Source: Escherichia phage JY01
Strand: one strand, 5' to 3'
DNA length: 64,000 bases
Sequence record: OR995200.1
The translations under genes and the position numbers were made by a program. How positions within the stretch are numbered: position 1 is the stretch's first letter; the number at the start of each line of letters is the position of its first letter. The notes below the pieces were generated by a model, which was given only the letters and a program-made list of their open reading frames with translations, searched no databases and had not been told where the DNA came from. Below, one piece after another: positions 11,040-47,607 of the stretch.

Positions 11040-12853
11040 TGGTGTTTAACCCTATGCATGATTTCTTTATTTTTACCGAGATTAAATCCGCGTTCGTTCG
11101 GATTTCCCAAATAACCACATGTTCTTCTTATGGTATTCATCTTTTTAGGATCAGTTTCTCCGCAAATAGAACAAACAAATCCGTTTTCAGTAGGAGTCAT
11201 TTCATGGGTACTTCCACATGTAAAACATTTATCTACTGGCATATTAACACCAAAATAATCTAAATGTTGTGCGGCATAATCCCATACAGCCTCAAGACCT
11301 TTTAAGTTATTTTTCATATCAGGAAGTTCAACATAAGAAATGTGACCACCTGTCGCAATGAAATGATATGGCGCTTCACGAGAAATCTTTTCAAACGGAG
11401 TAACATTTTCTTCTACTGAAACGTGGAAACTGTTAGTGTACCAGCCTTTATCAGTAACATCCTTTACACTTCCATATTTTTCTGTATCAAGTTTACAGAA
11501 GCGATAGCAAAGGTTTTCAGCAGGAGTAGAATACAAGCTAAAAGCAAATCCAGTTCTTTCAGTCCACTGTTTAAGATGAGCATTCATTTTAGTTAAAATT
11601 TCTTGCCCAATATCACGACCGACAAGAATATTCAATTCGTGAATACCAATGTATCCTAAAGACACTGAACTTCTACCGTTTTTAAATAACTCAATTATGT
11701 CGTCATCAGGTTTAAGACGAACCCCGAATGCACCTTCTTGGTAAAGAATAGGAGCAACAGTCGCTTTAACTCCTTTTAAGGAACTAATTCTACACATCAA
11801 AGCTTCAAAACATAAATCCATTCGCTCATTGAACAATTCAGTAAATTTCTGTTCATTGAACTGTGTTCCAATATAAGAATCTAACGCAATACGAGGAAGA
11901 TTCAGTGTTACAACACCAAGATTATTACGTCCATCAAGAATTTCATTGCCAGTCGAATCTTTCCATACGCTCAAGAAACTACGGCATCCCATCGGGGAAA
12001 CAGGAACAGATGAACCAGTGATAGCTTTATTGTTCTTAGCTGAAATAATATCAGGATACATCCTTTTGCTTGCACACTCTAAAGCAAGCTGCTTAATATC
12101 ATAGTTCGGATCGTCTTTATAAAGATTAACACCTTCTTCAACAAACATAACAAGCTTAGGGAAAATAGGAGTTATCCCATCACGACCAAGACCTTTAATA
12201 CGATTTTTCAAAATTGCTTTCTGAATCATTCGTTCAGTCCAGTCAGTTCCTGTACCAAATGTAATTGTTACAAAAGGAGTCTGTCCGTTTGAACTAAAGA
12301 GAGTATTTACTTCATATTCATAAGCTTGGAATGCATCGTATACGTCTTTTTCTGTTTTAGATTGGGCATAATTCAGTGCATCGGCGATTTGCCATTTTTC
12401 TGCGTCTTCGATATGTTTTGCATAGGTGCGTTTAACATAAGGAGAAAGTACTTTATCTACATTAGCAAAAGTCGTTCCGCCATATTGATGGGAAGCAACT
12501 TGCGCAGTAATTTGTGCCATAATTGCAGTAGCAACACCGATTGATTTAGGAGTTTCAATCTGCGCATTACCAAGCTTAAATCCGTTCTCAAGCATTCCTT
12601 TTAAATCTACTAAACAACAATTAGTAAATGGAAGAGCAGGGGAATAATCAATATCATGAAAATGAATAATTCCGCTTTCATGCGCTTTCATAATAAAAGA
12701 CGGGACCATATTTTTGGCAATGTGTTTAGACACAATACCAGCCATAAGGTCCCGTTGAGTTGGAAAAACACGAGAATCTTTATTAGCATTCTCGTTTAAA
12801 AGGTCTTTATTAGTTTTATGAATCAATCCTTCAATTTCTTTTTCAATTGTCAT
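11036..12853 (-). CDS. nrdD: Anaerobic ribonucleoside-triphosphate reductase NrdD, uninterrupted
   Basis: 605-aa ORF with C-terminal glycyl-radical motif RRTCGYLG and Cys-rich zinc ribbon (CFTCGSTHE...CSICGE). Confidence 0.93.
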   Translation of the reverse strand: MTIEKEIEGLIHKTNKDLLNENANKDSRVFPTQRDLMAGIVSKHIAKNMVPSFIMKAHESGIIHFHDIDYSPALPFTNCCLVDLKGMLENGFKLGNAQIETPKSIGVATAIMAQITAQVASHQYGGTTFANVDKVLSPYVKRTYAKHIEDAEKWQIADALNYAQSKTEKDVYDAFQAYEYEVNTLFSSNGQTPFVTITFGTGTDWTERMIQKAILKNRIKGLGRDGITPIFPKLVMFVEEGVNLYKDDPNYDIKQLALECASKRMYPDIISAKNNKAITGSSVPVSPMGCRSFLSVWKDSTGNEILDGRNNLGVVTLNLPRIALDSYIGTQFNEQKFTELFNERMDLCFEALMCRISSLKGVKATVAPILYQEGAFGVRLKPDDDIIELFKNGRSSVSLGYIGIHELNILVGRDIGQEILTKMNAHLKQWTERTGFAFSLYSTPAENLCYRFCKLDTEKYGSVKDVTDKGWYTNSFHVSVEENVTPFEKISREAPYHFIATGGHISYVELPDMKNNLKGLEAVWDYAAQHLDYFGVNMPVDKCFTCGSTHEMTPTENGFVCSICGETDPKKMNTIRRTCGYLGNPNERGFNLGKNKEIMHRVKHQ

Positions 12854-13323: not shown

Positions 13324-13368
13324 AATAAAACCCTTACCTTAAATAGATAAGGGTATTTATTATTTTTA

Positions 13369-13411
13369 AGTATTGTAAAACATTCGATGCAATCGTTTAT
13401 ACTGTCGAATC
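13369..13411. repeat. Imperfect direct repeat, copy 1 (second copy at 13581-13624)
   Basis: About 43 nt aagtattgtaaaacatt(c/t)gatgcaatcg… shared with the pin 3' end, 4 mismatches, 212 nt apart. Confidence 0.8.
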
Positions 13412-13578
13412 ATCTTTTTAGTAGGACGAGAATAGGTTCCTACGCAAGTGGTCATATGAGGGTCCGTAGAATGTCCTTTAATAAAAAGTTTCCAAACCTT
13501 ACCGCCATTTAACTTTTCAGTATAAACCAATTCGGTTTTCATTAAAATGTCCTGTCAGAAAAAGAATTTTGAGTTTTT

Positions 13579-14064
13579 TCAAGTATTGTAAAACATTTGA
13601 TGCAATCGCTTATATTGCCGAATCTTTTGGTCAGAAAAAGAAATTTGAGTTTCAAGCCATTCAATGTACTCTGCGGCAGCTTGCATCAGGTTACCTTCAT
13701 AGCCATCGTTATTTTCTTGCGCAGCTAATTTAGCTAATGCGTATGAAATACGTTCACCTTGAAAAGCGGCTTTAGGATTCTGAACATCTTGGCTAGTTCT
13801 CTCTACAACTTCTTCAATTTCGCCATTTTCAACGGATTCAGTATTCCACAAACACCAGTATGTAATTGGCTTATCATAGATGTTAATAATCTTTCCGTCG
13901 GAAAGTTCAATTTCAATAATTCCAGTATCAGGTTCTATATCATCTTCGCATTCTTTTGCAAGTTCACGAACTTTAAAGACAGTACCTGCACTAAGTTCCG
14001 GCCAGTAATTACATAGCCCTGTATCAACACGATTAATTCTAAACCACTTATCTACTGTAATCAT
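13579..14064 (-). CDS. pin: Protease inhibitor Pin
   Basis: Track ORF trimmed to Met7 (MITVDKWF…), 161 aa, matching T4 pin size and position. Confidence 0.75.
   Translation of the reverse strand: MITVDKWFRINRVDTGLCNYWPELSAGTVFKVRELAKECEDDIEPDTGIIEIELSDGKIINIYDKPITYWCLWNTESVENGEIEEVVERTSQDVQNPKAAFQGERISYALAKLAAQENNDGYEGNLMQAAAEYIEWLETQISFSDQKIRQYKRLHQMFYNT
13581..13624. repeat. Imperfect direct repeat, copy 2 (encodes pin C-terminus)
   Basis: Matches 13369-13411; a second short repeat gtcagaaaaagaa(t/a)tttgagtt occurs at 13551-13572 and 13630-13652. Confidence 0.8.
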
Positions 14065-15471: not shown

Positions 15472-16397
15472 TTCAATACCTCAATAGCATTACGTAAACC
15501 ATTTGCTTTTGCATTAAGAGCTTTTAACAATTTGGTGTGTTCTGCAATTTGGGCTTCAACTTCAATCAAACGGGCATTGAGATATTCACGTTCTTCACTC
15601 AGATTATCAACCTTTTCTACTTTAGGCTCTTTTACAACTGTCTTATATGTATTAGGGTTCTTCAGTTTAATTAGAATGCGTGAACTGTATAACATTGAAC
15701 CATTATCTTCGGTTTCGTCATACATTTCCACTACGTCCATAATTTTTAACATCATGCGGAGTTTATAAGACAACGAACGAATAGTTTTGTTGTGCTTATT
15801 AATTTCTTTAGCTGTCATGGTGCCAAGATTACGTGAGTAATAATAAGGAACCTGGATATTAATTAATACTGATGAACCACCTGGCTTGTGTGTTACTTCA
15901 TCAGCAATAACCCAGTCCTTAACATGAACTGTATTTGTACGGTCATCGCCCGCGGTAAATAGTTTGCGAGCATGCTTAAAAAGCATATTCACTTGGTCAT
16001 TGAATTGACAAGCAAATTTATCAGCAAATTTAGTTTCAGGAATGGTAGAAAACCAATCAGCCAAATGAGTCTTTTTAACATCATTAACAATAGTAAATTC
16101 AACCAAATCGGTTATAGATGTCTCAGATTTAATGAAGCTTGGCTTCATAAAGTTTTTAATGTTCTCATGAGCTACAGTAGAAGATAACATACGAGAACGT
16201 TTAAACCATTCAAGCAAATTTCCTAACGAATGAGAATAAGCATTCTGAGTATCTTTACAGATATGATTTTCCTGCCCAACATATTGAAGAAAATCACGAA
16301 GAATATTATTAACTACTGCTCTGTGCCCTATCTGATAATTACGATGTTTAGTAATAAGACTGTCAAAATAATCAATATAATGTTTACGAGTTTTCAT
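15468..16397 (-). CDS. Hypothetical protein with C-terminal coiled coil
   Basis: 309-aa ORF; heptad-like C-terminus (…[33 protein letters not shown]). Confidence 0.6.
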   Translation of the reverse strand: MKTRKHYIDYFDSLITKHRNYQIGHRAVVNNILRDFLQYVGQENHICKDTQNAYSHSLGNLLEWFKRSRMLSSTVAHENIKNFMKPSFIKSETSITDLVEFTIVNDVKKTHLADWFSTIPETKFADKFACQFNDQVNMLFKHARKLFTAGDDRTNTVHVKDWVIADEVTHKPGGSSVLINIQVPYYYSRNLGTMTAKEINKHNKTIRSLSYKLRMMLKIMDVVEMYDETEDNGSMLYSSRILIKLKNPNTYKTVVKEPKVEKVDNLSEEREYLNARLIEVEAQIAEHTKLLKALNAKANGLRNAIEVLK

Positions 16398-19879: not shown

Positions 19880-20407
19880 TTATGCGAGTACCGTCTTTAA
19901 CCGTTCTTCAAATTTCCGAAGAGTGTTCTGGCGTTCAGCTCTTTGCTTTTTGTAAGTTTCAATACGCTCTGAAATGAGAGTGTATCGTTCATTTACTGAT
20001 TCTTTCATAAAATCAGGAATTTCACGAGAAGCTTTAATCTCATCAAATTTATCAATAACAGCTTGCTCTTCAGCAATTAAGTTATCATACATTAAAATAT
20101 CTTTCTTGATGAACTCAATATCTTCTTGAGTTACACGAGATAATTTAGATGCTTTATCCTTTTTGTACTGTTCGTTAGTATCACGAGACCAGTGTAATGT
20201 ACGATTTTTATTCGTATTTTTGTAAATTTCTACAATACCAATTTCATCAATAATAACGATCCAATTCCAACGGGATTTGTAAATTTGTCCTCCATCAACA
20301 GTGATTTCACCTCCGATTGAGATGTCGTTAAAGAACTTGCTTTGTGCTTCAGATTTAAATTTACCATCGTTGTAATTTACCAAGTTGAAAATATCTTTAG
20401 CGTTCAT
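19880..20407 (-). CDS. Hypothetical protein with C-terminal coiled coil
   Basis: Track ORF trimmed to MNAKDIF; the annotated first 20 codons are a read-through of the promoter/5'-UTR module. Confidence 0.55.
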   Translation of the reverse strand: MNAKDIFNLVNYNDGKFKSEAQSKFFNDISIGGEITVDGGQIYKSRWNWIVIIDEIGIVEIYKNTNKNRTLHWSRDTNEQYKKDKASKLSRVTQEDIEFIKKDILMYDNLIAEEQAVIDKFDEIKASREIPDFMKESVNERYTLISERIETYKKQRAERQNTLRKFEERLKTVLA

Positions 20408-20433
20408 TTTCTGTTCCTCCGTAGTTGATAGTT

Positions 20434-20465
20434 GTATAGTACCACAGAGGAACAGTCTTGTAAAC
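20434..20465 (-). promoter_or_regulatory. Early promoter with conserved 5'-UTR module
   Basis: Minus strand: GTTTAC, 17 nt, tgtgGTACTATAC, then AACTATCAACTAC GGAGG ATG. Confidence 0.6.
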
Positions 20466-20467
20466 AA

Positions 20468-20782
20468 CTAAAAGAAACTTCTTTCACAATTTTTTCCACT
20501 GAACCAAGCGCTCACTGCTTTCTTAGTCTCAGGAGCAGTGTTATCCATAAACCATTCAAAGGCAGCCTTTTTATGATTCTGGAGGGCTTCTCGGGCTTTA
20601 ATCTGCTCACGGTCTATTAACACTAACATATGAGCCTTTCTTGTCACCAAGGGCTTCTTATGATTCTTGGAGTATTCCCAGTCATTTGTCCAACGCATTG
20701 TCGTTGCGAACTGAAATACTGCTTCTTTAATTTTAGTTTCGTAAATTTCACGAGCCTTTGAGTATAACATCATTACCTCCAT
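20468..20782 (-). CDS. Hypothetical protein
   Basis: 104-aa ORF. Confidence 0.5.
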   Translation of the reverse strand: MEVMMLYSKAREIYETKIKEAVFQFATTMRWTNDWEYSKNHKKPLVTRKAHMLVLIDREQIKAREALQNHKKAAFEWFMDNTAPETKKAVSAWFSGKNCERSFF

Positions 20783-20871: not shown

Positions 20872-21840
20872 TTATTTCAGAAGAGTAACCTCAGCAATTT
20901 CTTCCCAACCGTTTTTGTCGGTCATAATAAAGTCAGCAAGATAAAGAGCAGTACGCAGTGAAACATTGCGTAAACGATTAACATTGACTTTCATCCATGA
21001 TAATGCTTTATAAGTTTCTTCATCAGAAAGACCGCGCTTTTGCATCATGTCAGTTGAAAGAATAACATCTTCAACCCTGACCATAATTTCTTCATTAGTG
21101 TGAACACCCAAATCCAAATAAACTGAGCGGGACACTAATGCTTGTAAATGTGGAGCAAGTTTAGTACCACGGTCTAATTCGCGGTCAATGTCAACGTTTG
21201 TGATAAAAACAATCGTTCCTTTAAATTCAAACTCACGCTCAATGCCTTTTTCTTCTAAGTAAGAAGATGCAGTGCTCCAGCAGACTTTACGGGTCTCTCC
21301 AGTGTCCAGAGCGGCTTTTAGAAGATTAAGAATATCCATATCAGAGAAAACATCCACATCATCAATCAAAAGGACAGAATTCTCTTCACGATTATTCCAA
21401 AGCTGCTCATAAAGACCGATACCGGAGATTTTACCGTTAATGCTTTTATATTCAATGTATCCAATATCATTTGCTTTATTTAAAGCTTTATCTAAAGAAT
21501 ACGTTTTACCAATACCTGCTGCACCAGAGATAATTAATGAACGAATGTTTCCGTTAATAATACCATTCGTCATCATTCCCATAACATTAAATCTTTTATT
21601 AATGCGGGTTTTCATATCTTCATACGATTCTTTAACTTCTTCAACTTTTACACCATCATATGAAATGTCTGATTTGTAAACCCAAACACCGCGACGTTTA
21701 CCGTCAATTTCAACAAAAACTTTACCATCTCCTTGTGCATCTACCGGAGCATTATCTGGGAACCATTCGCCTAAGAGCTCAAAAGTTCCAGAGATTTCTT
21801 TACCGAAGTAGATACCCTTATTGATAGTTACAGTTTTCAT
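20872..21840 (-). CDS. AAA-type P-loop ATPase
   Basis: Walker A GAAGIGKT and Walker B LLIDDVD; true start is the second ATG after GGAG. Confidence 0.7.
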   Translation of the reverse strand: MKTVTINKGIYFGKEISGTFELLGEWFPDNAPVDAQGDGKVFVEIDGKRRGVWVYKSDISYDGVKVEEVKESYEDMKTRINKRFNVMGMMTNGIINGNIRSLIISGAAGIGKTYSLDKALNKANDIGYIEYKSINGKISGIGLYEQLWNNREENSVLLIDDVDVFSDMDILNLLKAALDTGETRKVCWSTASSYLEEKGIEREFEFKGTIVFITNVDIDRELDRGTKLAPHLQALVSRSVYLDLGVHTNEEIMVRVEDVILSTDMMQKRGLSDEETYKALSWMKVNVNRLRNVSLRTALYLADFIMTDKNGWEEIAEVTLLK

Positions 21841-21876
21841 TTTATTCTCCAAATCTGTATCAGTAGTTGATAGTTG

Positions 21877-21907
21877 TATAGTACCATAAAGCTTTATGAT
21901 TGTAAAC
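21877..21907 (-). promoter_or_regulatory. Early promoter with conserved 5'-UTR module
   Basis: Minus strand: GTTTAC, 17 nt, ttatgGTACTATAC AACTATCAACTACTGA; upstream of the AAA ATPase gene. Confidence 0.6.
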
Positions 21908-21929
21908 CGTTTTGTGAAAAATTTTTGAA

Positions 21930-21955
21930 ATAAAAAAGGGAGCCCGAAGGCTCCC
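21930..21955 (-). terminator. Rho-independent terminator after the nucleotidyltransferase gene
   Basis: Minus strand GGGAGCC-UUCG-GGCUCCC followed by UUUUUUA. Confidence 0.65.
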
Positions 21956-21957
21956 TA

Positions 21958-22971: not shown

Positions 22972-23429
22972 TCAGCCTTATATTCAATAACAGGACATAC
23001 TTTAGCTTTACGGGCTTTTAAAAATTCGACGATAATAGATTTCTTGGGTTGAATAGGAGGTAAACCTTTATACGCCCTATCAATATTTTCTACATGTAAA
23101 GCATAATCCTTTTTCCATTTATAATCTTTATATTTTTCATGCAGTTGTGCAGGAATAACAAATGAACCAATAATAAGTAAAACAAGCAAAATGGCAAGTA
23201 TAAATGCTGATGGAATAAGAGTCCATAAACTACCAAAAATAAGCCATTTCTGCATGATTTCTGCACAGATAATAGTTAGACCTGCGAGTATAGTACATCC
23301 GAAAAAAGAAACGAAAAATGTAGGAATAACAACAGACCAAAAATACGCGCATAGTGTCTTAGGTCGTTGCCATTCATCGTTAAACAATTTGAATAATTTA
23401 TAGTGCCAAGAGTTTTCATTAATAATCAT
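22968..23429 (-). CDS. Hypothetical membrane protein
   Basis: 153-aa ORF with 3-4 predicted TM segments. Confidence 0.5.
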   Translation of the reverse strand: MIINENSWHYKLFKLFNDEWQRPKTLCAYFWSVVIPTFFVSFFGCTILAGLTIICAEIMQKWLIFGSLWTLIPSAFILAILLVLLIIGSFVIPAQLHEKYKDYKWKKDYALHVENIDRAYKGLPPIQPKKSIIVEFLKARKAKVCPVIEYKAE

Positions 23430-23431
23430 AA

Positions 23432-23953
23432 TTATCCTTTCATTGAAGGCGTAACGGTTGTTAAATACTTAATCATAGCTTCAGCTTCTGATTTTGATAA
23501 TGAAATTTCTTCATTGTTTTGACGAATAGAAATAAAATCCGGATGACGGTCACCACCAGCTTTTAAAACACACATATAAGTATCGACTTCGCCTTCAATA
23601 TTTGAAATGATTGAAGCAGTTCCGCATGAATGTGGTTTTTGATAAATCAATACAGCTTTTCTTCCACCGTTTGACTGTTCATAGGCTTTTAATACATCAA
23701 GCAAATCAGTTCTTTTATCAATAGCTAAAATGTTATTTTCATCTTCAATGTTAAATCCTTCGGATACTTCATAAAGTGTTACCCATAAATCACCGATGTC
23801 AATAACAGCATTTACTTTTCCACGACTTTCAAGAGTATGACAAATTTTCTTGATTTCGTCATAACTCATTTTAATAATATCATCTCCTTGACTAAGGAAG
23901 ATGTCATTTTTAAATTCAACACGAATTAAACCGCTTCCACTTGAAATAAACAT
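23432..23953 (-). CDS. Hypothetical protein, paralogue of 23960..24514
   Basis: 173-aa ORF; C-terminus SIRQ…SKSEAEAMIKYLTTVTPSM parallels the neighbour's SIRQ…TKDEAIALKTYLDSVIPTM. Confidence 0.5.
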   Translation of the reverse strand: MFISSGSGLIRVEFKNDIFLSQGDDIIKMSYDEIKKICHTLESRGKVNAVIDIGDLWVTLYEVSEGFNIEDENNILAIDKRTDLLDVLKAYEQSNGGRKAVLIYQKPHSCGTASIISNIEGEVDTYMCVLKAGGDRHPDFISIRQNNEEISLSKSEAEAMIKYLTTVTPSMKG

Positions 23954-24948: not shown

Positions 24949-25080
24949 TACATACTCCTTTGAATAATATCAATAATGTTGTTCACCAAATTATAAGTAA
25001 ACATTGGGTAATTATATTGAATCATCACATACACAACAAACAAAACTTTCATTCTCTTCTCCTTGACAGTTGGCAAGATT

Positions 25081-25110
25081 ACTATACCATAATCTTGCCA
25101 ACTTGTAAAC
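25081..25110 (-). promoter_or_regulatory. Early promoter with -10 inside a perfect 12-bp inverted repeat
   Basis: Minus strand: GTTTAC, aa, GTTGGCAAGATT atggtatagt AATCTTGCCAAC. Confidence 0.5.
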
Positions 25111-25275
25111 CATTAAATGACGTTTTCGATAAAATTCTGAAGCTTTGTATGAGCATCAACCATGATTTTCAATTCTTCTTTAGCGAAAGCTGTGCCTCTT
25201 TCACGAGAAGAGCATTCATAGTCAGAAACTGCATTAGCATATTCTTCAATTAGTTTCATTAAAAACATCTGCTTT

Positions 25276-25676: not shown

Positions 25677-25864
25677 TATTCCACCACATATGACAGAGAG
25701 AATATTGCACACGCCATGTGAGTTGCAACTTCATCACACATATTATAACGTTTCTTAAGAAGTTCTACAAGTTCTTCACTAGTAACTTCATCCATGTCGA
25801 CGAAAAAATCACCATTAATGATGACGTAGATATTTCCTTCTTGATTAAGTGCTTCAATTTTCAT
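25676..25864 (-). CDS. Hypothetical protein
   Basis: Track ORF trimmed to MKIEALNQ; the upstream extension is the promoter/UTR module. Confidence 0.4.
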
Positions 25865-25892
25865 GATGTTCTCCTCTTTATCCGATAGTTGT

Positions 25893-25922
25893 ATAGTATC
25901 ACAGCTCAAACGGAAAGTAAAC
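25893..25922 (-). promoter_or_regulatory. Early promoter
   Basis: Minus strand: GTTTAC, 17 nt, tgtgATACTATAC; follows a terminator hairpin. Confidence 0.6.
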
Positions 25923-25931
25923 CGGTAAAAT

Positions 25932-25955
25932 GAAAAAAGTCTCCCGAAGGAGACT
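25932..25955 (-). terminator. Rho-independent terminator
   Basis: Minus strand AGUCUCC-UUCG-GGAGACU followed by UUUUUU, then an early promoter. Confidence 0.65.
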
Positions 25956-29599: not shown

Positions 29600-30061
29600 T
29601 CATTGAGTTTTAATTACTGCTTTAGAAGCCTTTCCTGGTAAACGACGACTGTTGATAATTGCCATCCTGCATTGGAGTGACGGGTCTTTGAACTTCTCAT
29701 TAGGTTTACAAACTGTAAATCCAAGCCAAAGATTTCCATCTGTGATTTCTAAACGTCCAGGACGATATTCAACCCCATCAATAAAATCCTCGTCAATGTC
29801 AGGACGCGGAGGCATACTCAGGAATTCATTAACTTCTAAAACATGGTCTTTTATTTTGTGGAATAATTCAAAAACATATGTCTCATCAATCTCCCGTTGA
29901 ATTGCACGATCAAGAAGATGTTGAGAATATTTTAGATGAAACGATGAGACTCCTGCTGCTTTTGATGCCTCACGAATCTCATTGTTAATTTGACGAAACT
30001 CCGACTCAAAATGACGACGAAGCTTATTTCGACGGATAAAAACTTCTGTATTGATAGTCAT
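29600..30061 (-). CDS. regB: Endoribonuclease RegB
   Basis: 153-aa ORF recognised as T4 RegB (MTINTEVFIRRNKLRRHF…). Confidence 0.9.
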   Translation of the reverse strand: MTINTEVFIRRNKLRRHFESEFRQINNEIREASKAAGVSSFHLKYSQHLLDRAIQREIDETYVFELFHKIKDHVLEVNEFLSMPPRPDIDEDFIDGVEYRPGRLEITDGNLWLGFTVCKPNEKFKDPSLQCRMAIINSRRLPGKASKAVIKTQ

Positions 30062-30088
30062 GTTGTTCTCCTCTTAACTGATAGAAAA

Positions 30089-30118
30089 ATTATACCACAG
30101 TCAAGAGGAAAAGTAAAC
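30089..30118 (-). promoter_or_regulatory. Early promoter for regB
   Basis: Minus strand: GTTTAC, 17 nt, tgtgGTATAAT, about 28 nt upstream of regB ATG. Confidence 0.65.
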
Positions 30119-30120
30119 AG

Positions 30121-30399
30121 TTATTCTTTAAATCTAATCAATTTATTCATAGACTTTGAAACTTCTGCACGAACCTCATGTAAGTTTTTAAGCTGTTCAA
30201 GACGCTGCTCATAGTAAGCAATTTCATCTTCTTCGAGACAGTCCTGTGAATCTTCTTTAAGATAACGTGCATAGTCCTGAAAAGCTTTACGGACTACTTC
30301 CTGGAAGTCATCAAGACTTTGAATTTTCTTAGGAGCGACAGATACACGACGAGGTGCAGTATAATACTCATAACCAAACCCTGCACTTAATTGAGCCAT
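30121..30399 (-). CDS. Hypothetical protein
   Basis: Track ORF trimmed to internal Met. Confidence 0.45.
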
Positions 30400-32741: not shown

Positions 32742-33158
32742 TTAAATGTAAATATTTTTACCGTAGTATTTATACCAGTGTGGCTTCATTAAAATTTTTT
32801 CATCGAGTCGTTGTTGACTCAATTTAATAGCTGATTTGCATGGATTATAATCATTTTTCCATTCTGCTGGAATATCGCTGATGTCAGGAACTTCAGTATC
32901 TTTTATATTGAACCCACGTTTTAAGCATTCCGTTATAATGTCTGATTGACGCTTTCGCAAAAATTCTAACTTATCGTAAAAGAACGTAACATGACCAGAG
33001 CCTAAAATAAACTCGGAAGATATTTTAAAATCTTTAACCCGCTTACCATTTGCCACATGTTTACGAACTATACCAAAAACGCGTGGCAATTCACGGTATT
33101 CTGCGATTAAATGTTGATCAGCAAGTTCAGATACTAAAGTCAAATTAATACGAGTCAT
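32742..33158 (-). CDS. denV: Endonuclease V (pyrimidine-dimer DNA glycosylase) DenV
   Basis: 138-aa [20 protein letters not shown]…; recognised as T4 DenV but visibly diverged. Confidence 0.9.
32767..32774 (-). promoter_or_regulatory. Late promoter (gp55-type TATAAATA)
   Basis: TATAAATA on minus strand about 35 nt upstream of the internal-protein-like gene at 32732. Confidence 0.65.
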
Positions 33159-33182
33159 TTTATCCCTCCAAGTAACTGTGAA

Positions 33183-33213
33183 TATACTATCACAATTCTA
33201 GAAGAAAGTAAAC
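33183..33213 (-). promoter_or_regulatory. Early promoter for denV
   Basis: Minus strand: GTTTAC, 17 nt, tgtgATAGTATAT; SD GGAGGG before denV ATG. Confidence 0.55.
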
Positions 33214-33217
33214 AACT

Positions 33218-34186
<969 letters not shown>

Positions 34187-36632: not shown

Positions 36633-36674
36633 AGTATTTCCTTAGGTTGATTAGAAATTAAAATCTGCAGAAGA

Positions 36675-36704
36675 ATTATATCATGCTACTTAAGAGATGT
36701 AAAC
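36675..36704 (-). promoter_or_regulatory. Early promoter
   Basis: Minus strand: GTTTAC, 18 nt, TATAAT; upstream of 36039..36632. Confidence 0.5.
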
Positions 36705-37194
36705 TATTTTTAATTTTACAAATTCGTTCAGCTTCTTCAACAGCGGCAGTGATAATGCTTTTAGCTATAGGAGTACTAATACTAGTAGCTTTTACACTTA
36801 ACACGATTTCTTTATCTTTACCAGGCCAACCCCACGATTTTTCACCATGGGTGCCTTTAATTACAGCAGACACCTCAAGTGAGCATCCATTATCGCATGT
36901 TTTTACATTAACAACCCAAGTGTCACTTTTCTCAACCGGTTTATCCCAGTAAATATTAAGAATACGTGGAACATCAAATTTAGCAGGGCAAATCTTAACC
37001 GTAAGACCTTCGCTTTCTAGCCAATTAATAAGAGGGCGTTCATACATGCGGCGATGTGGGCTTTGAACTCGACAAGCTTTGTACCCATTGCTTGCGGCTT
37101 CACTAAGCTCTTCTAATACCTGCTTTTGCATTATTGATAAGATACCATCAAAAGATTTTTCGGAAGTTTCATTCAGTTCGGTATAAAGAGACAT
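36676..37194 (-). CDS. Hypothetical protein
   Basis: Track ORF trimmed to MSLYTELNET, which is preceded by GAGGAAA. Confidence 0.5.
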   Translation of the reverse strand: MSLYTELNETSEKSFDGILSIMQKQVLEELSEAASNGYKACRVQSPHRRMYERPLINWLESEGLTVKICPAKFDVPRILNIYWDKPVEKSDTWVVNVKTCDNGCSLEVSAVIKGTHGEKSWGWPGKDKEIVLSVKATSISTPIAKSIITAAVEEAERICKIKNSLHLLSSMI

Positions 37195-37211
37195 AACAGT
37201 TTTCCTCAAAT

Positions 37212-37250
37212 TATAGGCTCATAATATCTCAATCATGAGCCTATGTAAAC
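37212..37250 (-). promoter_or_regulatory. Early promoter with -10 region bracketed by inverted repeat
   Basis: Minus strand: GTTTAC, ATAGGCTCAT gattgagATATTAT GAGCCTAT. Confidence 0.5.
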
Positions 37251-37514
37251 TTATTTCATATTATTGAAATATTCTTCTGCGATTTCGTCGTTATCATGGT
37301 AAACTTTAGAAGACAGTTTAACATAACCTTCAGCAGTGAACATGTTAATCACAACCTTTACAGTATACCACTGACCATCTTCATTACCCATTACTGCATA
37401 GGTTTCAAACATCGGATGATCAGGACCGATAACTTTAATATCATTCACCGTACGACCGAAATCTTCTGAAACACATTTCATAAAGAAGTTGAACAGTTCA
37501 CCGTAATTATCCAT
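37251..37514 (-). CDS. Hypothetical protein
   Basis: Track ORF trimmed to MDNYGELF; upstream GGAG belongs to the promoter/UTR module. Confidence 0.45.
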   Translation of the reverse strand: MDNYGELFNFFMKCVSEDFGRTVNDIKVIGPDHPMFETYAVMGNEDGQWYTVKVVINMFTAEGYVKLSSKVYHDNDEIAEEYFNNMK

Positions 37515-37556
37515 TTCATTCTCCAAGTTGTTTTCTGTATCAGTAGTTGATAGTTG

Positions 37557-37587
37557 TATAGTACCATAGAAGAACAGGGATGTAAAC
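37557..37587 (-). promoter_or_regulatory. Early promoter with conserved 5'-UTR module
   Basis: Minus strand: GTTTAC, 17 nt, ctatgGTACTATAC AACTATCAACTACTGA. Confidence 0.6.
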
Positions 37588-37715
37588 AGTTTTGTGAAAA
37601 ATTTTTAAAAAGTTTTGGGGAATTCTAGGGCAGGGAGGGGAAATCAAAGGATAGGATAATATATTATAAAGGGTAGAAACTAAATGATGTCTAGAGAGGC
37701 CTGGAAAGGCCTAGA

Positions 37716-37747
37716 TACCAAAAAGCCCCAACCTTTCGGCTAGGGCT
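37716..37747 (-). terminator. Rho-independent terminator downstream of the internal-protein-like gene
   Basis: Minus strand stem AGCCCUAGCC/GGUUGGGGCU with GAAA loop followed by UUUU. Confidence 0.6.
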
Positions 37748-38276: not shown

Positions 38277-38305
38277 CCAAAAAGCCCCAACCTTTCGGTC
38301 GGGGC
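38274..38305 (-). terminator. Rho-independent terminator at the end of the tRNA/stable-RNA unit
   Basis: Minus strand stem AGCCCCGACC/GGUUGGGGCU with GAAA loop followed by UUUUU. Confidence 0.65.
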
Positions 38306-38353
38306 TAAGCCTTGCGGCAACCTTGTCGGGGTTCCACCTGCTAAGGCAAGTGT

Positions 38354-38615: not shown

Positions 38616-38966
38616 TTAATATTCTTTTAAAGCATCAATCTGTTTACGGCGTTCACGCCATAAATCAATTGCTTCATACGCGGATTCAACATTTCGAATT
38701 GGACGGCATTTATATAAAGATTTGTGATTTTGATATTGCGTAGATAACGGAATTTTATCTAAAAGGTCTTTACGTTCAAAGTATTCGTAACCATCTAAGC
38801 CAAATGAACGATTTTTGAGAAATTGCCAATGACCAAATTCGTTTTGAATATAAATATAATCCGCATGTTGATAAAGTAAATTAATTTCACGAAATGAGAT
38901 ATGTTTTTCATATTCATTGAAGTAAAATGTTAAATCATGAACTACTAAATAAACATTACCTTTCAT
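38616..38966 (-). CDS. Hypothetical protein within the tRNA region
   Basis: 116-aa ORF between tRNA-Arg and the stable-RNA candidate. Confidence 0.45.
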   Translation of the reverse strand: MKGNVYLVVHDLTFYFNEYEKHISFREINLLYQHADYIYIQNEFGHWQFLKNRSFGLDGYEYFERKDLLDKIPLSTQYQNHKSLYKCRPIRNVESAYEAIDLWRERRKQIDALKEY

Positions 38967-38984
38967 ATTTTCCTCACTTATAAT

Positions 38985-39060
38985 TGGTCGAGGCAGTAGG
39001 GATCGAACCTACGACCTAGGACTTAGAAGGTCCTTGCTCTTCCTTCTGAGCTATGCCCCG
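38985..39060 (-). tRNA. tRNA-Arg (anticodon UCU)
   Basis: 76-nt cloverleaf read by hand; anticodon loop CUUCUAA; T-loop GGTTCGATCC; CCA encoded. Confidence 0.8.
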
Positions 39061-39064
39061 TAAT

Positions 39065-39140
39065 TGGGGTGACCGATGGGAGTCGAACCCATGACTACGA
39101 GAATCACAATCTCGAGTTCTACCAACTGAACTACGGCCAC
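39065..39140 (-). tRNA. tRNA-His (anticodon GUG), no encoded G-1
   Basis: 76-nt cloverleaf GTGGCCG…; anticodon loop TTGTGAT; discriminator C; CCA encoded; 5' flanking base is U. Confidence 0.65.
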
Positions 39141-39254
39141 ATTAATACCTACTCCAACAATCAAGATGTCTTCACACGAAATTAAGAGAAGAGTGATCAG
39201 TTCAACCCCTATAATCGCGTCAAGTAGATATTAATGTGACAGTTGTCACAAATT

Positions 39255-39329
39255 TGGCGGACGTGATAGGATTCGAACCTATAACCAATCGCTTAACAGG
39301 CGATCGCTCTGCCATTGAGCTACACATCC
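39255..39329 (-). tRNA. tRNA-Asn (anticodon GUU)
   Basis: 75-nt cloverleaf GGATGTGTAGCTCAATGGCAGAGC…; anticodon loop CTGTTAA; CCA encoded. Confidence 0.75.
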
Positions 39330-39333
39330 AAAT

Positions 39334-39420
39334 TGGTGGGGAGTGATGGAGTCGAACCACCCGAGTCGCAATGACAATGAATTTACAGTCCACACCGCTA
39401 CCTCTACGGGATAACTCCCC
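39334..39420 (-). tRNA. tRNA-Tyr (anticodon GUA), long variable arm
   Basis: 87-nt class II cloverleaf; anticodon loop CTGTAAA; 3-bp D-stem; CCA encoded. Confidence 0.7.
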
Positions 39421-39433
39421 TTAATTCATAATT

Positions 39434-39508
39434 TGGTGGCCCTGGGTGGAATTGAACCACCATCTGGCGATTATGAGTCGCTTGCTTGAACCTTCCAGCT
39501 ACAGGGCC
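39434..39508 (-). tRNA. tRNA with CAU anticodon (Ile2 by T4 synteny, or Met)
   Basis: 75-nt cloverleaf; anticodon loop CTCATAA; lies 1 nt downstream of tRNA-Thr, as in the T4 Thr-Ile dimer. Confidence 0.7.
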
Positions 39509-39509
39509 T

Positions 39510-39585
39510 TGGTGCTGATTGACGGAATCGAACCGCCGACCTTCTCATTACAAGTGAGTTGCTCTACCTACTGAGCTAAATCAGC
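39510..39585 (-). tRNA. tRNA-Thr (anticodon UGU)
   Basis: 76-nt cloverleaf GCTGATTTAGCTCAGTAGGTAGAGC…; anticodon loop CTTGTAA; CCA encoded. Confidence 0.8.
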
Positions 39586-39590
39586 AAAAC

Positions 39591-39680
39591 TGGCGGAGGT
39601 GATAGGATTCGAACCTATGAATCGCCGGAGCGACTGCCGGTTTTCAAGACCGGTGCATTCAACCACTCTGCCACACCTCC
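39591..39680 (-). tRNA. tRNA-Ser (anticodon UGA), long variable arm
   Basis: 90-nt class II tRNA; anticodon stem CCGGT/ACCGG with loop CTTGAAA; CCA encoded. Confidence 0.75.
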
Positions 39681-39682
39681 AG

Positions 39683-39756
39683 TCTCCATACAAGGATTTG
39701 AACCTTGGACCTCCTGATCCCAAATCAGGCGCTCTACCAAACTGAGCTACACGGAG
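39683..39756 (-). tRNA. tRNA-Pro (anticodon UGG), CCA not encoded
   Basis: 74-nt cloverleaf; anticodon loop TTTGGGA; 2-nt spacer to tRNA-Ser (Pro-Ser dimer arrangement). Confidence 0.75.
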
Positions 39757-39766
39757 TAAATTAAAT

Positions 39767-39840
<74 letters not shown>

Positions 39841-39845
39841 AAATT

Positions 39846-39932
39846 TGGTGCGAGAAGTGGGACTCGAACCCACAAGGAAATCATTCCGCAGCATTTTAAG
39901 TGCTGTGCCTTTACCAATTTGACCATTCTCGC
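39846..39932 (-). tRNA. tRNA-Leu (anticodon UAA), long variable arm
   Basis: 87-nt class II tRNA; anticodon stem CAGCA/TGCTG with loop CTTAAAA; CCA encoded. Confidence 0.8.
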
Positions 39933-39933
39933 G

Positions 39934-40006
39934 CTGGGAATAAAGGACTCGAACCTTTGCATCCTGGAATCAAAATCCAGTGCCTTACCAACTTGGCTAA
40001 TTCCCA
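39934..40006 (-). tRNA. tRNA-Gln (anticodon UUG), CCA not encoded
   Basis: Starts TGGGAATTAGCCAAGTTGGTAAGGC with U1-A72; anticodon loop TTTTGAT; 1-nt spacer to tRNA-Leu (Gln-Leu dimer). Confidence 0.8.
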
Positions 40007-41285: not shown

Positions 41286-41471
41286 TTACTCACCTTTAGA
41301 AATTTTATCCATAACGATAGCAATTAAACCAATTAAAAATGCTACTACAAGTGAAAATACATTTTCTGCTGTAGTTAATAATCCGCATATAAATCCAACA
41401 AACATTGAAAAACTAAAAGCGGAAGCAGAAATTGCAATAGCAACATTTCGAATTAATTCACAGCGTTTCAT
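41286..41471 (-). CDS. Hypothetical small membrane protein
   Basis: Track ORF trimmed to MKRCELIRNV; hydrophobic; upstream extension is the promoter/UTR module. Confidence 0.4.
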   Translation of the reverse strand: MKRCELIRNVAIAISASAFSFSMFVGFICGLLTTAENVFSLVVAFLIGLIAIVMDKISKGE

Positions 41472-41496
41472 TTTATTCTCCTCAGTAGTTGATAGG

Positions 41497-41529
41497 GTAA
41501 TAGTATCACTACTAAAACCCCGTGTAAAC
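41497..41529 (-). promoter_or_regulatory. Early promoter with conserved UP/5'-UTR module
   Basis: Minus strand: tttcacaaagtt, GTTTAC, 17 nt, gtgATACTATTAC, CCTATCAACTACTGAGGAG. Confidence 0.6.
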
Positions 41530-41541
41530 AACTTTGTGAAA

Positions 41542-41799
41542 TTATTTTAAATCTTCTAATCGTTTCTTCATCTTAGAACCATTTTTAGCGATTTCTCCTG
41601 CGTCAGAGCATAATGCTAAAAGTGCTTTAACTTTAGTTTGGTCTCCTTTAAAAGACGAAGGATCGACTGCAGCAGCAAGTTCTTTAATACGAGAGAAAAG
41701 ACGCTCAGCTTCAGCTAAAGCCATTCCAAGCTTTACTTCCATACCATGAGAAGATTCAGTGATAATAGTTTCTGTAGCAAACTCTTTATAAGTTTTCAT
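41542..41799 (-). CDS. Internal protein I-like (ipI position, capsid-targeting leader)
   Basis: 85-aa ORF starting MKTYKEFATE, immediately upstream of 57B as T4 ipI is. Confidence 0.6.
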   Translation of the reverse strand: MKTYKEFATETIITESSHGMEVKLGMALAEAERLFSRIKELAAAVDPSSFKGDQTKVKALLALCSDAGEIAKNGSKMKKRLEDLK

Positions 41800-41821
41800 T
41801 TTATTTTTCCTAATTAATTTT

Positions 41822-41860
41822 GATGAGGTAATAGTATCACTACCTCATCAGTGTGTAAAC
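41822..41860 (-). promoter_or_regulatory. Early promoter for ipI-like gene, -10 in hairpin loop
   Basis: Minus strand: GTTTAC, acac, TGATGAGGTA gtgatactat TACCTCATCA. Confidence 0.55.
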
Positions 41861-41872
41861 AACTTTGTGAAA

Positions 41873-42569
<697 letters not shown>

Positions 42570-45896: not shown

Positions 45897-47607
45897 TAAC
45901 CTTAATTGGTTTGTTGGTGTTGTTGAAGATAGAATGGACCCATTAAAATTAGGTCGTGTTCGTGTTCGTGTTGTTGGTCTGCATCCACCTCAAAGAGCAC
46001 AAGGTGATGTAATGGGTATTCCAACTGAAAAATTACCATGGATGTCAGTTATTCAACCTATAACTTCTGCAGCAATGTCTGGAATTGGAGGCTCCGTTAC
46101 TGGACCGGTAGAAGGAACTAGAGTTTATGGTCATTTTTTAGACAAATGGAAAACTAACGGAATTGTCCTTGGTACATATGGCGGAATAGTTCGCGAAAAA
46201 CCTAATAGACTTGAAGGATTTTCTGACCCAACTGGACAGTATCCTAGACGTCTAGGAAATGATACTAACGTATTAAACCAAGGCGGAGAAGTAGGATATG
46301 ATTCGTCTTCTAATATTATCCAAGATAGCAATCTAGACACTGCGATAAATCCTGATGATAGACCATTATCAGAAATTCCAACTGATGATAATCCAAATAT
46401 GTCAATGGCTGAAATGCTTCGCCGCGATGAAGGATTAAGACTAAAAGTTTATTGGGATACCGAAGGATATCCGACAATTGGTATTGGTCATCTTATCATG
46501 AAGCAGCCAGTTCGTGATATGGCCCAAATTAATAAAGTTTTATCAAAACAGGTTGGTCGTGAAATTACCGGAAATCCAGGTTCTATTACAATGGAAGAAG
46601 CGGTAACTTTATTTGAACGTGATTTAGCTGATATGCAACGTGACATTAAATCACATTCTAAAGTTGGCCCAGTTTGGCAAGCAGTTAATCGTTCTCGTCA
46701 AATGGCATTAGAAAATATGGCATTTCAGATGGGTGTTGGCGGTGTAGCTAAATTTAACACAATGTTAACTGCTATGTTAGCAGGAGATTGGGAAAAAGCA
46801 TATAAAGCCGGTCGTGATTCATTGTGGTATCAACAAACAAAAGGCCGTGCATCCCGTGTTACCATGATTATTCTTACGGGGAATTTGGAATCATATGGTG
46901 TTGAAGTGAAAACTCCAGCTAGGTCTTTATCGGCAATGGCTGCTACTGTAGCAAAGTCTTCTGACCCGGCTGACCCTCCTATTCCAAATGACTCGAGAAT
47001 TTTATTCAAAGAACCAGTTTCTTCATATAAAGGTGAATATCCTTATGTACATACAATGGAAACTGAAAGCGGTCATATTCAGGAATTTGATGATACCCCT
47101 GGGCAAGAACGATATAGATTAGTTCATCCAACTGGAACTTATGAAGAAGTATCACCGTCAGGAAGAAGAACAAGAAAAACTGTCGATAATTTGTATGATA
47201 TAACCAACGCTGATGGTAATTTTTTGGTAGCCGGCGATAAAAAGACTAACGTCGGTGGATCAGAAATTTATTACAACATGGATAATCGTCTTCACCAAAT
47301 AGATGGAAGCAATACAATATTTGTACGTGGCGATGAAACTAAGACGGTTGAAGGTAATGGAACTATCCTAGTTAAAGGTAATGTTACTATTGTAGTTGAA
47401 GGTAATGCTGACATTACAGTTAAAGGAGATGCTACCACTTTAGTTGAAGGAAATCAGACTAATACAGTAAATGGAAATCTTTCTTGGAAAGTTGCTGGGA
47501 CAGTTGATTGGGACGTTGGTGGTGATTGGACAGAAAAAATGGCATCTATGAGTTCTATTTCATCTGGTCAATACACAATTGATGGATCGAGGATTGACAT
47601 TGGCTAA
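45880..47607 (+). CDS. 5: Baseplate hub / tail-associated lysozyme gp5
   Basis: 575-aa ORF with internal lysozyme domain (MAEMLRRDEGLRLKVYWDTEGYPTIGIGH) and C-terminal VEGN repeats. Confidence 0.95.
   Translation: MEMISNNLNWFVGVVEDRMDPLKLGRVRVRVVGLHPPQRAQGDVMGIPTEKLPWMSVIQPITSAAMSGIGGSVTGPVEGTRVYGHFLDKWKTNGIVLGTYGGIVREKPNRLEGFSDPTGQYPRRLGNDTNVLNQGGEVGYDSSSNIIQDSNLDTAINPDDRPLSEIPTDDNPNMSMAEMLRRDEGLRLKVYWDTEGYPTIGIGHLIMKQPVRDMAQINKVLSKQVGREITGNPGSITMEEAVTLFERDLADMQRDIKSHSKVGPVWQAVNRSRQMALENMAFQMGVGGVAKFNTMLTAMLAGDWEKAYKAGRDSLWYQQTKGRASRVTMIILTGNLESYGVEVKTPARSLSAMAATVAKSSDPADPPIPNDSRILFKEPVSSYKGEYPYVHTMETESGHIQEFDDTPGQERYRLVHPTGTYEEVSPSGRRTRKTVDNLYDITNADGNFLVAGDKKTNVGGSEIYYNMDNRLHQIDGSNTIFVRGDETKTVEGNGTILVKGNVTIVVEGNADITVKGDATTLVEGNQTNTVNGNLSWKVAGTVDWDVGGDWTEKMASMSSISSGQYTIDGSRIDIG

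Follow-up and report, generated by a model that had tools for sequence, protein, structure and literature searches.

Early promoter/leader cassettes of a TACTAT subfamily recur before different genes in a T4-like phage

INTRODUCTION

The early promoters of phage T4, on which unmodified or Alt-modified E. coli sigma-70 RNA polymerase acts, are strong promoters that combine UP, -35, TGn and -10 elements with further regions of consensus (Hinton 2010, PMC2988021), and their hallmark is a GTTTAC sequence at positions -36 to -31 (Nolan et al. 2006, PMC1524935). In the phages RB49 and phi1, genes are excised or inserted by recombination of composite elements termed PeSLs (promoter-early stem-loop), each of which combines a stem-loop with an early promoter, a ribosome-binding site (RBS) and an ATG (Arbiol et al. 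2010, PMC2839356); in RB49 the stem-loops are described as "overlapping the -10 box" (PMC2839356). A later study, which added T4/PST, gave the consensus of PeSLs as TTTACW-N17-TAYWAT (Comeau et al. 2014, PMC4122927). The RBS of such leaders may also be a site of RNA cleavage, the consensus of strong RegB/S1 sites being GG*AGRAYARAA (Durand et al. 2006, in Uzan & Miller 2010, PMC3014915).

In this work, we analyzed a 64,000-nt stretch of phage DNA (the window), in which a preliminary description had noted a promoter plus leader block repeated at five loci and had taken it for a mobile promoter/leader cassette. The cassette reading was correct, but its identity with the textbook T4 early promoter and with the published PeSLs went unrecognized. 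Given the match to both, the preliminary description had in effect rediscovered, correctly, elements that were already known; the repeated cassette is real but ordinary. The loci are very probably sigma-70-dependent T4-type early promoters (Pe) of one paralogous TACTAT subfamily, organized as complete expression cassettes that would be targeted by RegB and shuffled by recombination.

RESULTS

Five loci with positional orthologues among the T4 promoters

Judged by its sequence, the window belongs to a T4-like phage (Tequatrovirus). In a sequence search, an 8-kb stretch around the loci was 96 to 99% identical to hundreds of Tequatrovirus genomes, with Shigella phage SfPhi01 as the closest match (99.0%), and the segment from 12.3 to 43.9 kb is colinear with T4 (NC_000866, 45.8 to 76 kb) except for several indels. 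GC skew and gene layout indicate minus-strand genes up to about 45 kb of the window. The loci at 20465, 21907, 25922, 37587 and 41529 align to T4 positions 53943, 55384, 58780, 70696 and 73572, and their positional orthologues are the T4 promoters upstream of nrdC.8, nrdC.10, mobD.5, e.8 and trna.4, respectively; the T4 promoter at 53943 is thereby the orthologue of the nrdC.8 cassette (20405 to 20489). Orthologous sites in phage Lutter (MT682714) carry the annotation "promoter," and the one before nrdC.10 carries "terminator" as well. Copies of the cassette lie in the nrdC-mobD, e-tRNA and internal-protein regions, and the proteins encoded downstream of the five loci have no Pfam family in common.

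Architecture of the cassettes

The repeated block was found on the minus strand at all five loci, as had been described. Every locus has GTTTAC, 18 nt and TACTAT, that is, TTTACA-17-TACTAT (TTTACT at 25922), with TG at -15/-14, so that an extended -10 of the TGn type (TGG or TGA at -15 to -13) is present in 5 of 5, as is a GGAG located 7 to 9 nt upstream of the ATG. The loci thus have GTTTAC at -36 to -31, 17-bp spacing, TG at -15/-14, an A-rich UP region and extra consensus in common with the T4 early promoters of which they are the positional orthologues, and nothing essential differs.

A generic sigma-70 scan was uninformative, returning 43 and 27 matches against 34.7 and 26.6 in shuffled sequence; the TG flag of the sigma-70 scan was raised at four of the listed loci, the one at 25922 being absent from that scan's list. 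Only the specific T4 pattern, GTTTAC-N16-18-TACTATNC, discriminates the loci from shuffled sequence, with four matches in the window against 0.00 expected (100 shuffles). The fifth locus, 41529, carries TACTATTA instead of TACTATNC.

Similarity between the copies continues into the leader. The leader 15-mer ACAACTATCAACTAC occurs exactly at 20421-20435, 21863-21877 and 37543-37557, with none expected by chance, and elsewhere in the window it has no further match with fewer than three mismatches. The loci at 21907 and 37587 share a 34-nt identity (-16 to +18); their UP regions are nearly identical as well, but their spacers differ. The leaders at 25922 (ACAACTATCgg...) and 41529 (TAcCCTATCAACTACTGAGGAG) are partial family members, and in a search for repeats the loci came out as families D1, D3 and D4. 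The composite consensus given in the preliminary description merged two leader variants into one.

The upstream part is less uniform. A putative A/T-rich UP region (about -40 to -60) is present at 21907, 37587 and 41529, each time with TTTCACAAA. The UP region of 25922 is a T-rich terminator tail and does not contain TTTCACAAA; that of 20465 is coding sequence, and there TTTCACAAA occurs only as its reverse complement, within the upstream coding region.

The individual cassettes, all on the minus strand, are composed as follows. In the nrdC.8-orthologue cassette (20405 to 20489), the upstream part (20489-20466) belongs to the coding sequence of nrdC.9 and is followed by the -35 TTTACA (20464-20459), the TGn (20444-20442), the -10 TACTAT (20441-20436), the predicted +1 A (20429), the GGAG (20420-20417) and the ATG (20407-20405). 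The nrdC.10-orthologue cassette (21838 to 21931) has a UP region with TTTTTCACAAAAC, a -35 at 21906-21901, a -10 at 21883-21878, a predicted +1 at 21871, GGAGAATAAAA from 21850 and an ATG at 21840-21838. In the mobD.5-orthologue cassette (25862 to 25946), the -35 TTTACT (25921-25916), the -10 (25898-25893), the predicted +1 (25886), the GGAG (25874-25871) and the ATG (25864-25862) are in the same order, and the leader has only ACAACTATC in common with the other loci. The e.8-orthologue cassette (37512 to 37611) combines a UP region with TTTTTCACAAAAC, a -35 at 37586-37581, a -10 at 37563-37558, a predicted +1 at 37551, GGAGAATGAAA from 37524 and an ATG at 37514-37512. Likewise, the trna.4-orthologue cassette (41469 to 41553) has ATTTCACAAAG in its UP region, a -35 at 41528-41523, a -10 at 41505-41500, a predicted +1 at 41493, the leader variant TACCCTATCAACTACTGAGGAG, GGAGAATAAAA from 41481 and an ATG at 41471-41469. 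A sixth TACTAT-class promoter (41860; 41797 to 41884, minus strand) stands upstream of an internal-protein-like gene (41542-41799). It has the same UP, -35 and -10 elements as 41529, differs from it in the leader, and contains an inverted repeat straddling the -10.

The start sites were placed by reference to a promoter named in the T4 record, "early promoter Pe133295." The G of its GTTTAC is at 133331, and since the coordinate in the name equals 133331 minus 36, +1 lies 36 nt downstream of this G. From this spacing, we infer that transcription of the family would start at the A of CTATCAA, corresponding to 20429, 21871, 25886, 37551 and 41493 in the window. Wolfram-Schauerte et al. (bioRxiv 10.1101/2024.04.04.588121) have reportedly determined start sites for T4 by dRNA-seq.

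In each copy, an A/T-rich UP region (often TTTCACAAA), a GTTTACA -35, a TG-extended -10 and the initiator CTA(+1)TCAA are followed by an A/C-rich leader of 20 to 37 nt that is predicted to be unstructured, a GGAG RBS with A-rich sequence, and the ATG. According to the proposed mechanism, host RNA polymerase would fire the cassettes right after infection, and the open leader would permit immediate translation.

The RBS end of the leader resembles RegB sites

The leader had previously been raised as a possible nuclease target, a suggestion that agrees with the RBS end of the leaders and with the gene content of the window. The regB endoribonuclease gene is located at 29600 to 30061 on the minus strand (PF10715, E = 8e-69), and its product is the trans-acting nuclease expected, from these sequence matches, to cut the GGAG RBSs of the leaders. 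The RegB/S1 consensus GGAGRAYARAA is matched at 11 of 11 positions at 21907 and 41529 and at 10 of 11 at 37587; the matches at 25922 (9/11) and 20465 (8/11) are weak. For the last ~11 nt of the leader, the nuclease-target idea therefore has a known answer. As in RegB/S1 sites, the GGAG lies in the initiation region of an early gene, within an A-rich consensus, and is predicted to be unpaired, and regB is present; these sites explain only those last ~11 nt, and at 20465 and 25922 the match is limited to 8 to 9 of 11.

RNAs started at the promoters are predicted to be unstructured (free energy of 0 to -3.3 kcal/mol, z of -0.5 to +1.5), and the RBS/GGA is unpaired in these predictions. At gathering score, Rfam covariance models recovered only 10 tRNAs in the window and no family at the five loci. 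Later in infection, RegB would cut the RBS and thereby inactivate the early mRNA.

Hairpins and stem-loops at the promoters

At the nrdC.8 locus (20465), a hairpin spans the promoter (20411 to 20455, minus strand), with a 15-bp stem, -23.8 kcal/mol and z = -6.3. Its 5' arm (20455-20441) is in the spacer, its 3' arm (20425-20411) covers the RBS GGAGG, and its loop contains the -10 box and +1. Owing to this spacer-RBS pairing, an RNA reading through from nrdC.9 would bury the GGAGG and a promoter-started RNA would not, so the hairpin is predicted to silence the read-through RNA. A comparable arrangement exists at the T4 genes e, soc, 49 and I-TevI, where a hairpin in the read-through RNA buries the RBS and a promoter inside the hairpin gives a translatable RNA. 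The window promoters of regB (30118) and denV (33213) have the same hairpin design (z = -5.4 and -2.7, respectively), and at 20465, regB and denV the spacer pairs with the RBS region and +1 lies in the loop, as in the classical cases. In the classical T4 hairpins, the internal promoter is a late or middle one; here it is early, and the effect on translation is a prediction. Early promoters embedded in RBS-burying hairpins are a modest refinement, and no new kind of element.

The stem of 20465 is kept in the T4 nrdC.8 and ndd.4 variants, the three differences of ndd.4 all being of the wobble type, with pairing preserved. Moreover, the nrdC.8 promoter of Dhakavirus VR5 and the denV promoter of T4 are one cassette, with stems that differ by a compensatory A-U to U-A change. 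RNAalifold across genera gave little formal covariation for nrdC.8, because Mosigvirus HX01 and VR5 pair in other registers. At three other promoters (41860, 37250 and 25110), the -10 is straddled by a strong inverted repeat that leaves the RBS uncovered. Hairpins at the -10 of the 20465 and 41860 types match the RB49 PeSL stem-loops that overlap the -10 (PMC2839356).

Terminator-like stem-loops are found at two further loci. One (AGGGAGCCTTCGGGCTCCCT plus a T run, 21937 to 21956, minus strand) lies immediately upstream of the 21907 promoter and corresponds to the stem-loop part of a PeSL, the orthologous Lutter site being the one annotated "terminator"; the other (AGTCTCCTTCGGGAGACT plus a T run, 25938 to 25955, minus strand) directly precedes the 25922 promoter. 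An adjacent or overlapping stem-loop is thus present at 3 of the 5 loci (21907, 25922 and 20465). That of 41529 is weak (z = -1.5), and at 37587 there is no adjacent stem-loop, the nearest terminator being 137 nt upstream.

A TACTAT subfamily with its own initiator and leader

The extent of similarity beyond the -10 was compared among 35 intergenic T4 promoters of the form GTTTAC-N18-TAnnnT, taken from the assembled genome. The -10 is TACTAT in 14 of them, including the motA promoter, and only these 14 carry information downstream of the -10 (-6 to +13, consensus acaaCtATCAActactga). Their UP region is also stronger, while the 21 others are nearly uninformative downstream of the -10. CTATC at -2 to +3 was found in 10 of the 14 TACTAT promoters against 1 of the 21 others in T4 (Fisher p = 5e-5), and in 5 of 6 against 1 of 8 in the window (p = 0.026); all promoters followed by CTATCAA are TACTAT promoters (10/10 in T4, 4/4 in the window). 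Initiator and UP motif covary with the type of -10. The claim that identity runs past the -10 into the leader is borne out, as the mark of a subfamily and not of a general consensus. The distinction of a TACTAT/CTATCAAC(TAC) initiator/leader class from a TATAAT-type class is a modest refinement; the split is not spelled out in the reviews of T4 early promoters on which this comparison draws.

To avoid motif-based ascertainment, orthologues of nrdC.8 were fetched through their neighboring genes. The nrdC.8 promoters of HX01 and VR5 match CTATCAACTAC at 11 of 11 positions, with unrelated spacers, and "N4-CTATC(A/G)A" behind the -10 recurs across genera; together, these observations point to a constraint on the initiation region. 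In addition, GGAGAATAAAATG is common to all genera examined. Other genera have repeated leader blocks of their own, namely agtCCTATCAAAACAAA in phage ST2 and TACTTCATACCAAACAAAT in the Gelderlandvirus STML-198, suggesting spread or homogenization within lineages. Loci from metagenomes and IMG/VR had been found by an exact leader match, which biases their apparent conservation; region-by-region variability across these orthologues was therefore set aside, and the neighbor-gene orthologues were relied on instead. A selection test on e.8 (window, ST2 and T4) is without power because the whole locus is ~93% identical.

Both descent and selection contribute to the identity of the copies. The long identity between copies would stem from common descent, homologous recombination or gene conversion among them (PeSL-type shuffling) would maintain it, and purifying selection on the initiation region would help to keep it. 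The promoter spacer would be free to diverge, or would be tuned to pair with the leader.

This degree of conservation could also mean that the invariant block of initiator and leader (ACAACTATCAACTACTGA) serves as a dedicated cis-regulatory target and that the TACTAT class is a functionally distinct regulon. Only one promoter class has the block, which contains the quasi-repeat tACTAT-aca-ACTAT-ca-ACTAC, and CTATCAACTAC is kept at 11 of 11 positions across three genera in which the spacer has wholly diverged. Early-promoter shut-off and Alt selectivity are, moreover, not understood according to reviews (PMC2988021, PMC3014915). However, no binding factor is known or predicted, there is no Rfam family match at the loci, and the block at nrdC.8 is partly explained by the spacer hairpin together with the RBS/RegB site. 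Equivalent promoters in other genera carry different repeated leader blocks, which argues for lineage-specific descent or homogenization and not for a universal operator, and which makes a dedicated regulatory target unlikely. Similarly unlikely, when taken together, are its specific variants: an operator for a shut-off factor, a signal for Alt/ModA-modified RNA polymerase, sigma-dependent proximal pausing through the ACTAT units, or an RNA signal.

It is less probable still, and in our view very unlikely, that the loci resemble one another merely through the general T4 early-promoter consensus, without homology as cassettes. GTTTAC, TG and TAnnnT are indeed common to all T4 early promoters, and "additional regions of consensus" have been noted in reviews (PMC2988021). 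Such an explanation is at odds with the 21 non-TACTAT promoters, which have almost no information downstream of the -10, with the joint variation of -10 type, initiator and UP motif, and with the exact identities of 15 to 34 nt between copies. Conservation is accordingly not confined to the -35 and -10 hexamers, and the loci are best described as one paralogous subfamily of early promoters.

Distribution and recombination of the cassettes

A 100-nt query covering the nrdC.10 module matched 546 phage records, almost all of them Tequatrovirus, and among the matches listed the module occurs at 6 to 8 places per genome in most genomes. The genes behind the cassettes were compared in a small pooled sample (T4, the window, and T4-like contigs from IMG/VR and metagenomes). 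In this set, TACTAT cassettes precede 31 distinct 12-residue N-termini, or ~20 after merging of near-identical orthologues, and the genes include motA, imm.1-like, ndd, frd and internal-protein genes. An identical full promoter, spacer included, can stand before different open reading frames (ORFs) in different phages. Paralogue pairs are mosaics: identity is at least 95% for the initiation region and at least 85% for the UP region, but ~40% for the spacer.

A comparison of the window with T4 gave 42 homology breakpoints, 5 of which lie within cassettes; 1.4 would be expected, as the cassettes make up 3.3% of the region (P = 0.012). These five breakpoints represent three events. In the first, ipIII and ipII were lost and an ipIII-type promoter was fused to denV (33162/33169). 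In the second, e.7 was replaced along with the e.6 promoter (36649/37199). In the third, a different internal-protein gene took the place of ipI between the 41860 and 41529 cassettes (41547/41776). Among the five listed loci, only 41529 is at a T4 breakpoint; none of the 42 window-T4 breakpoints is at the nrdC.8, nrdC.10 or mobD.5 cassette.

The cassettes resemble PeSLs in being composite, multicopy elements of hyperplastic regions that mark the boundaries of insertions, deletions and replacements, in fitting TTTACW-N17-TAYWAT, and in having the RBS and start codon at the 3' end at all five loci. They differ from PeSLs at 37587 and 41529, which lack a convincing adjacent stem-loop; as only three of the five loci have one, the PeSL architecture is incomplete at these two. 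The proposal of a mobile promoter/leader cassette fits the multicopy occurrence in 546 records, the ~20 different downstream genes, the cassette shared by VR5 nrdC.8 and T4 denV, and the enrichment of breakpoints. The word "mobile" is appropriate in the sense of shuffling, probably by homologous recombination, and not in that of autonomous transposition, given the mosaic copies and the lack of terminal repeats.

That the block copies itself as a unit, as an autonomous or endonuclease-mobilized element such as a mini transposon or a homing-endonuclease target, is highly improbable. It is multicopy, near-identical and next to variable genes, and T4-like genomes have many seg and mob homing endonucleases. 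Nevertheless, the copies are mosaic, with unrelated spacers, and are not systematically beside endonuclease genes. Upon inspection of the loci, similarity faded upstream and ended at the ATG, and there were no terminal inverted repeats or target-site duplications.

False N-terminal extensions of ORFs

The cassettes also account for the N-termini that had been noted as shared and artefactual in the translated ORFs, and mechanical ORF calling from TTG reproduced both exactly: the ORF at 19880 to 20467 gives MFTRLFLCGTIQLSTTEEQK-MNAKD, and the one at 41286 to 41531 gives MFTRGFSSDTITLSTTEENK-MKRCE. These false extensions arise because the TTG in ag-TTG-TTTAC, in the -35 region, is in frame with the real ATG. 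The chance that the long TTG-started ORFs are real and their shared N-terminal peptides translated is negligible: the frames are open from the TTGs at 20467 and 41531, but each TTG is within the -35 region, upstream of the predicted +1 and with no RBS before it, GGAG lies 7 to 9 nt before the internal ATG, the T4 reference begins nrdC.8 and trna.4 at that ATG, and no open frame runs through the block from that TTG at 21907 or 37587. Even in the T4 reference, the annotated start of ndd.4 seems to be an ATG within a cassette leader.

DISCUSSION

Recognition of the cassettes gives the correct transcription units and the true start codons in the annotation of T4-like phages, where mechanical ORF calling added a false 20-residue TTG extension at two loci. 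The cassettes are a known means by which T4-like phages would combine immediate-early expression, switch-off by RegB and the swapping of accessory genes by recombination. The TACTAT/CTATCAAC split and the RBS-burying hairpins could help in the study of Alt-responsive early promoters and of the restriction of early expression.

Sequence features of the early-promoter cassettes and the start codon of ndd.4

At the cassette upstream of the nrdC.8 orthologue (promoter 20465), the -10 box and the beginning of the transcribed region together make up a quasi-repeat, tACTAT-aca-ACTAT-ca-ACTAC, which runs on the minus strand from 20441-20436 through to 20421 and is also seen at 21878-21863 and 37558-37543 on the same strand. 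Its second unit (ACTAT) is similar to a weak -10 element, with A at position 2 and T at position 6. Upstream of this promoter, the UP-type motif TTTCACAA was found only as its reverse complement (attgtgaaag; 20475-20484, minus strand), in the 3'-terminal part of the nrdC.9 coding region.

In the T4 reference, the annotated start of ndd.4 (NC_000866, 166636-166764; L016:41737-41865) is an ATG that lies within the cassette leader (ctATGgaggaac) and overlaps the ribosome-binding site. A second ATG, 15 nt downstream of the annotated one, is preceded by a proper GGAGG site. T4 ndd.4 as annotated is probably 5 codons too long at its start, and this is probably the same type of artefact as the false N-terminal extensions of open reading frames at the window cassettes.

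Early-promoter families in other T4-like genera

Phage ST2 (L045) and the Gelderlandvirus STML-198 (L046) have their own early-promoter families with long common leaders, TATAGTagtCCTATCAAAACAAA and TACTATtacttcataccaaacaaat, represented at 16283, 24043, 25339 and 36005 in ST2 and at 12249 and 23720 in STML-198. All of these leaders have a GGAGAATAAAATG-like ribosome-binding site at the 3' end. The ST2 record is classified as Guernseyvirinae/Kagunavirus, yet its gene content is T4-like.

Duplications and differences in gene content from T4

A terminator hairpin (AGCCC..GAAAGGTTGGGGCT, with TTTT directly after it) is present as two near-identical minus-strand copies, 37724-37747 and 38283-38306, both of which align to a single T4 stretch (70825-70859). 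Judged by sequence, the approximately 525 bp between them, which have no T4 counterpart, look like an insertion bounded by the repeated terminator. Close to the gene 49/pin junction, the two copies of a 63-nt direct repeat (13349-13411 and 13562-13624; 83% identical) share one T4 counterpart in the alignment, 46894-46944, and this suggests a small insertion with flanking duplication. Gene 5 contains, in its 3' part, six tandem 24-nt units (GTTGAAGGTAATGGAACTATCCTA-like; 47323-47490, plus strand), which correspond to the beta-helix repeat known from the needle of gp5.

The window departs from T4 in its gene content at 22972-23935, 33162-33169, 36649-37199, 38616-39489 and 41547-41776. It lacks the T4 genes ipII and ipIII, e.7 and its adjoining promoter are replaced, and ipI gives way to a different internal-protein-like gene of 85 aa that keeps the MKTYKEF N-terminus. 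The mobD and segB stretches of T4 gave no alignment to the window. Rfam identified ten tRNA genes (38988-40006, minus strand), compared with the eight annotated in T4.

Inverted repeats at further early promoters

Strong inverted repeats straddle the -10 box at further early promoters in five minus-strand regions of the window. At promoters 25110 (25030-25134; folding z score, -5.7), 37250 (37190-37274; z = -3.1) and 41860 (41797-41884; z = -4.7), the predicted hairpin leaves the ribosome-binding site uncovered. At the regB (30059-30142; z = -5.4) and denV (33150-33237; z = -2.7) promoters, its 3' arm lies over the ribosome-binding site, and therefore RNA reading through from upstream would, on the folding model, be untranslatable.
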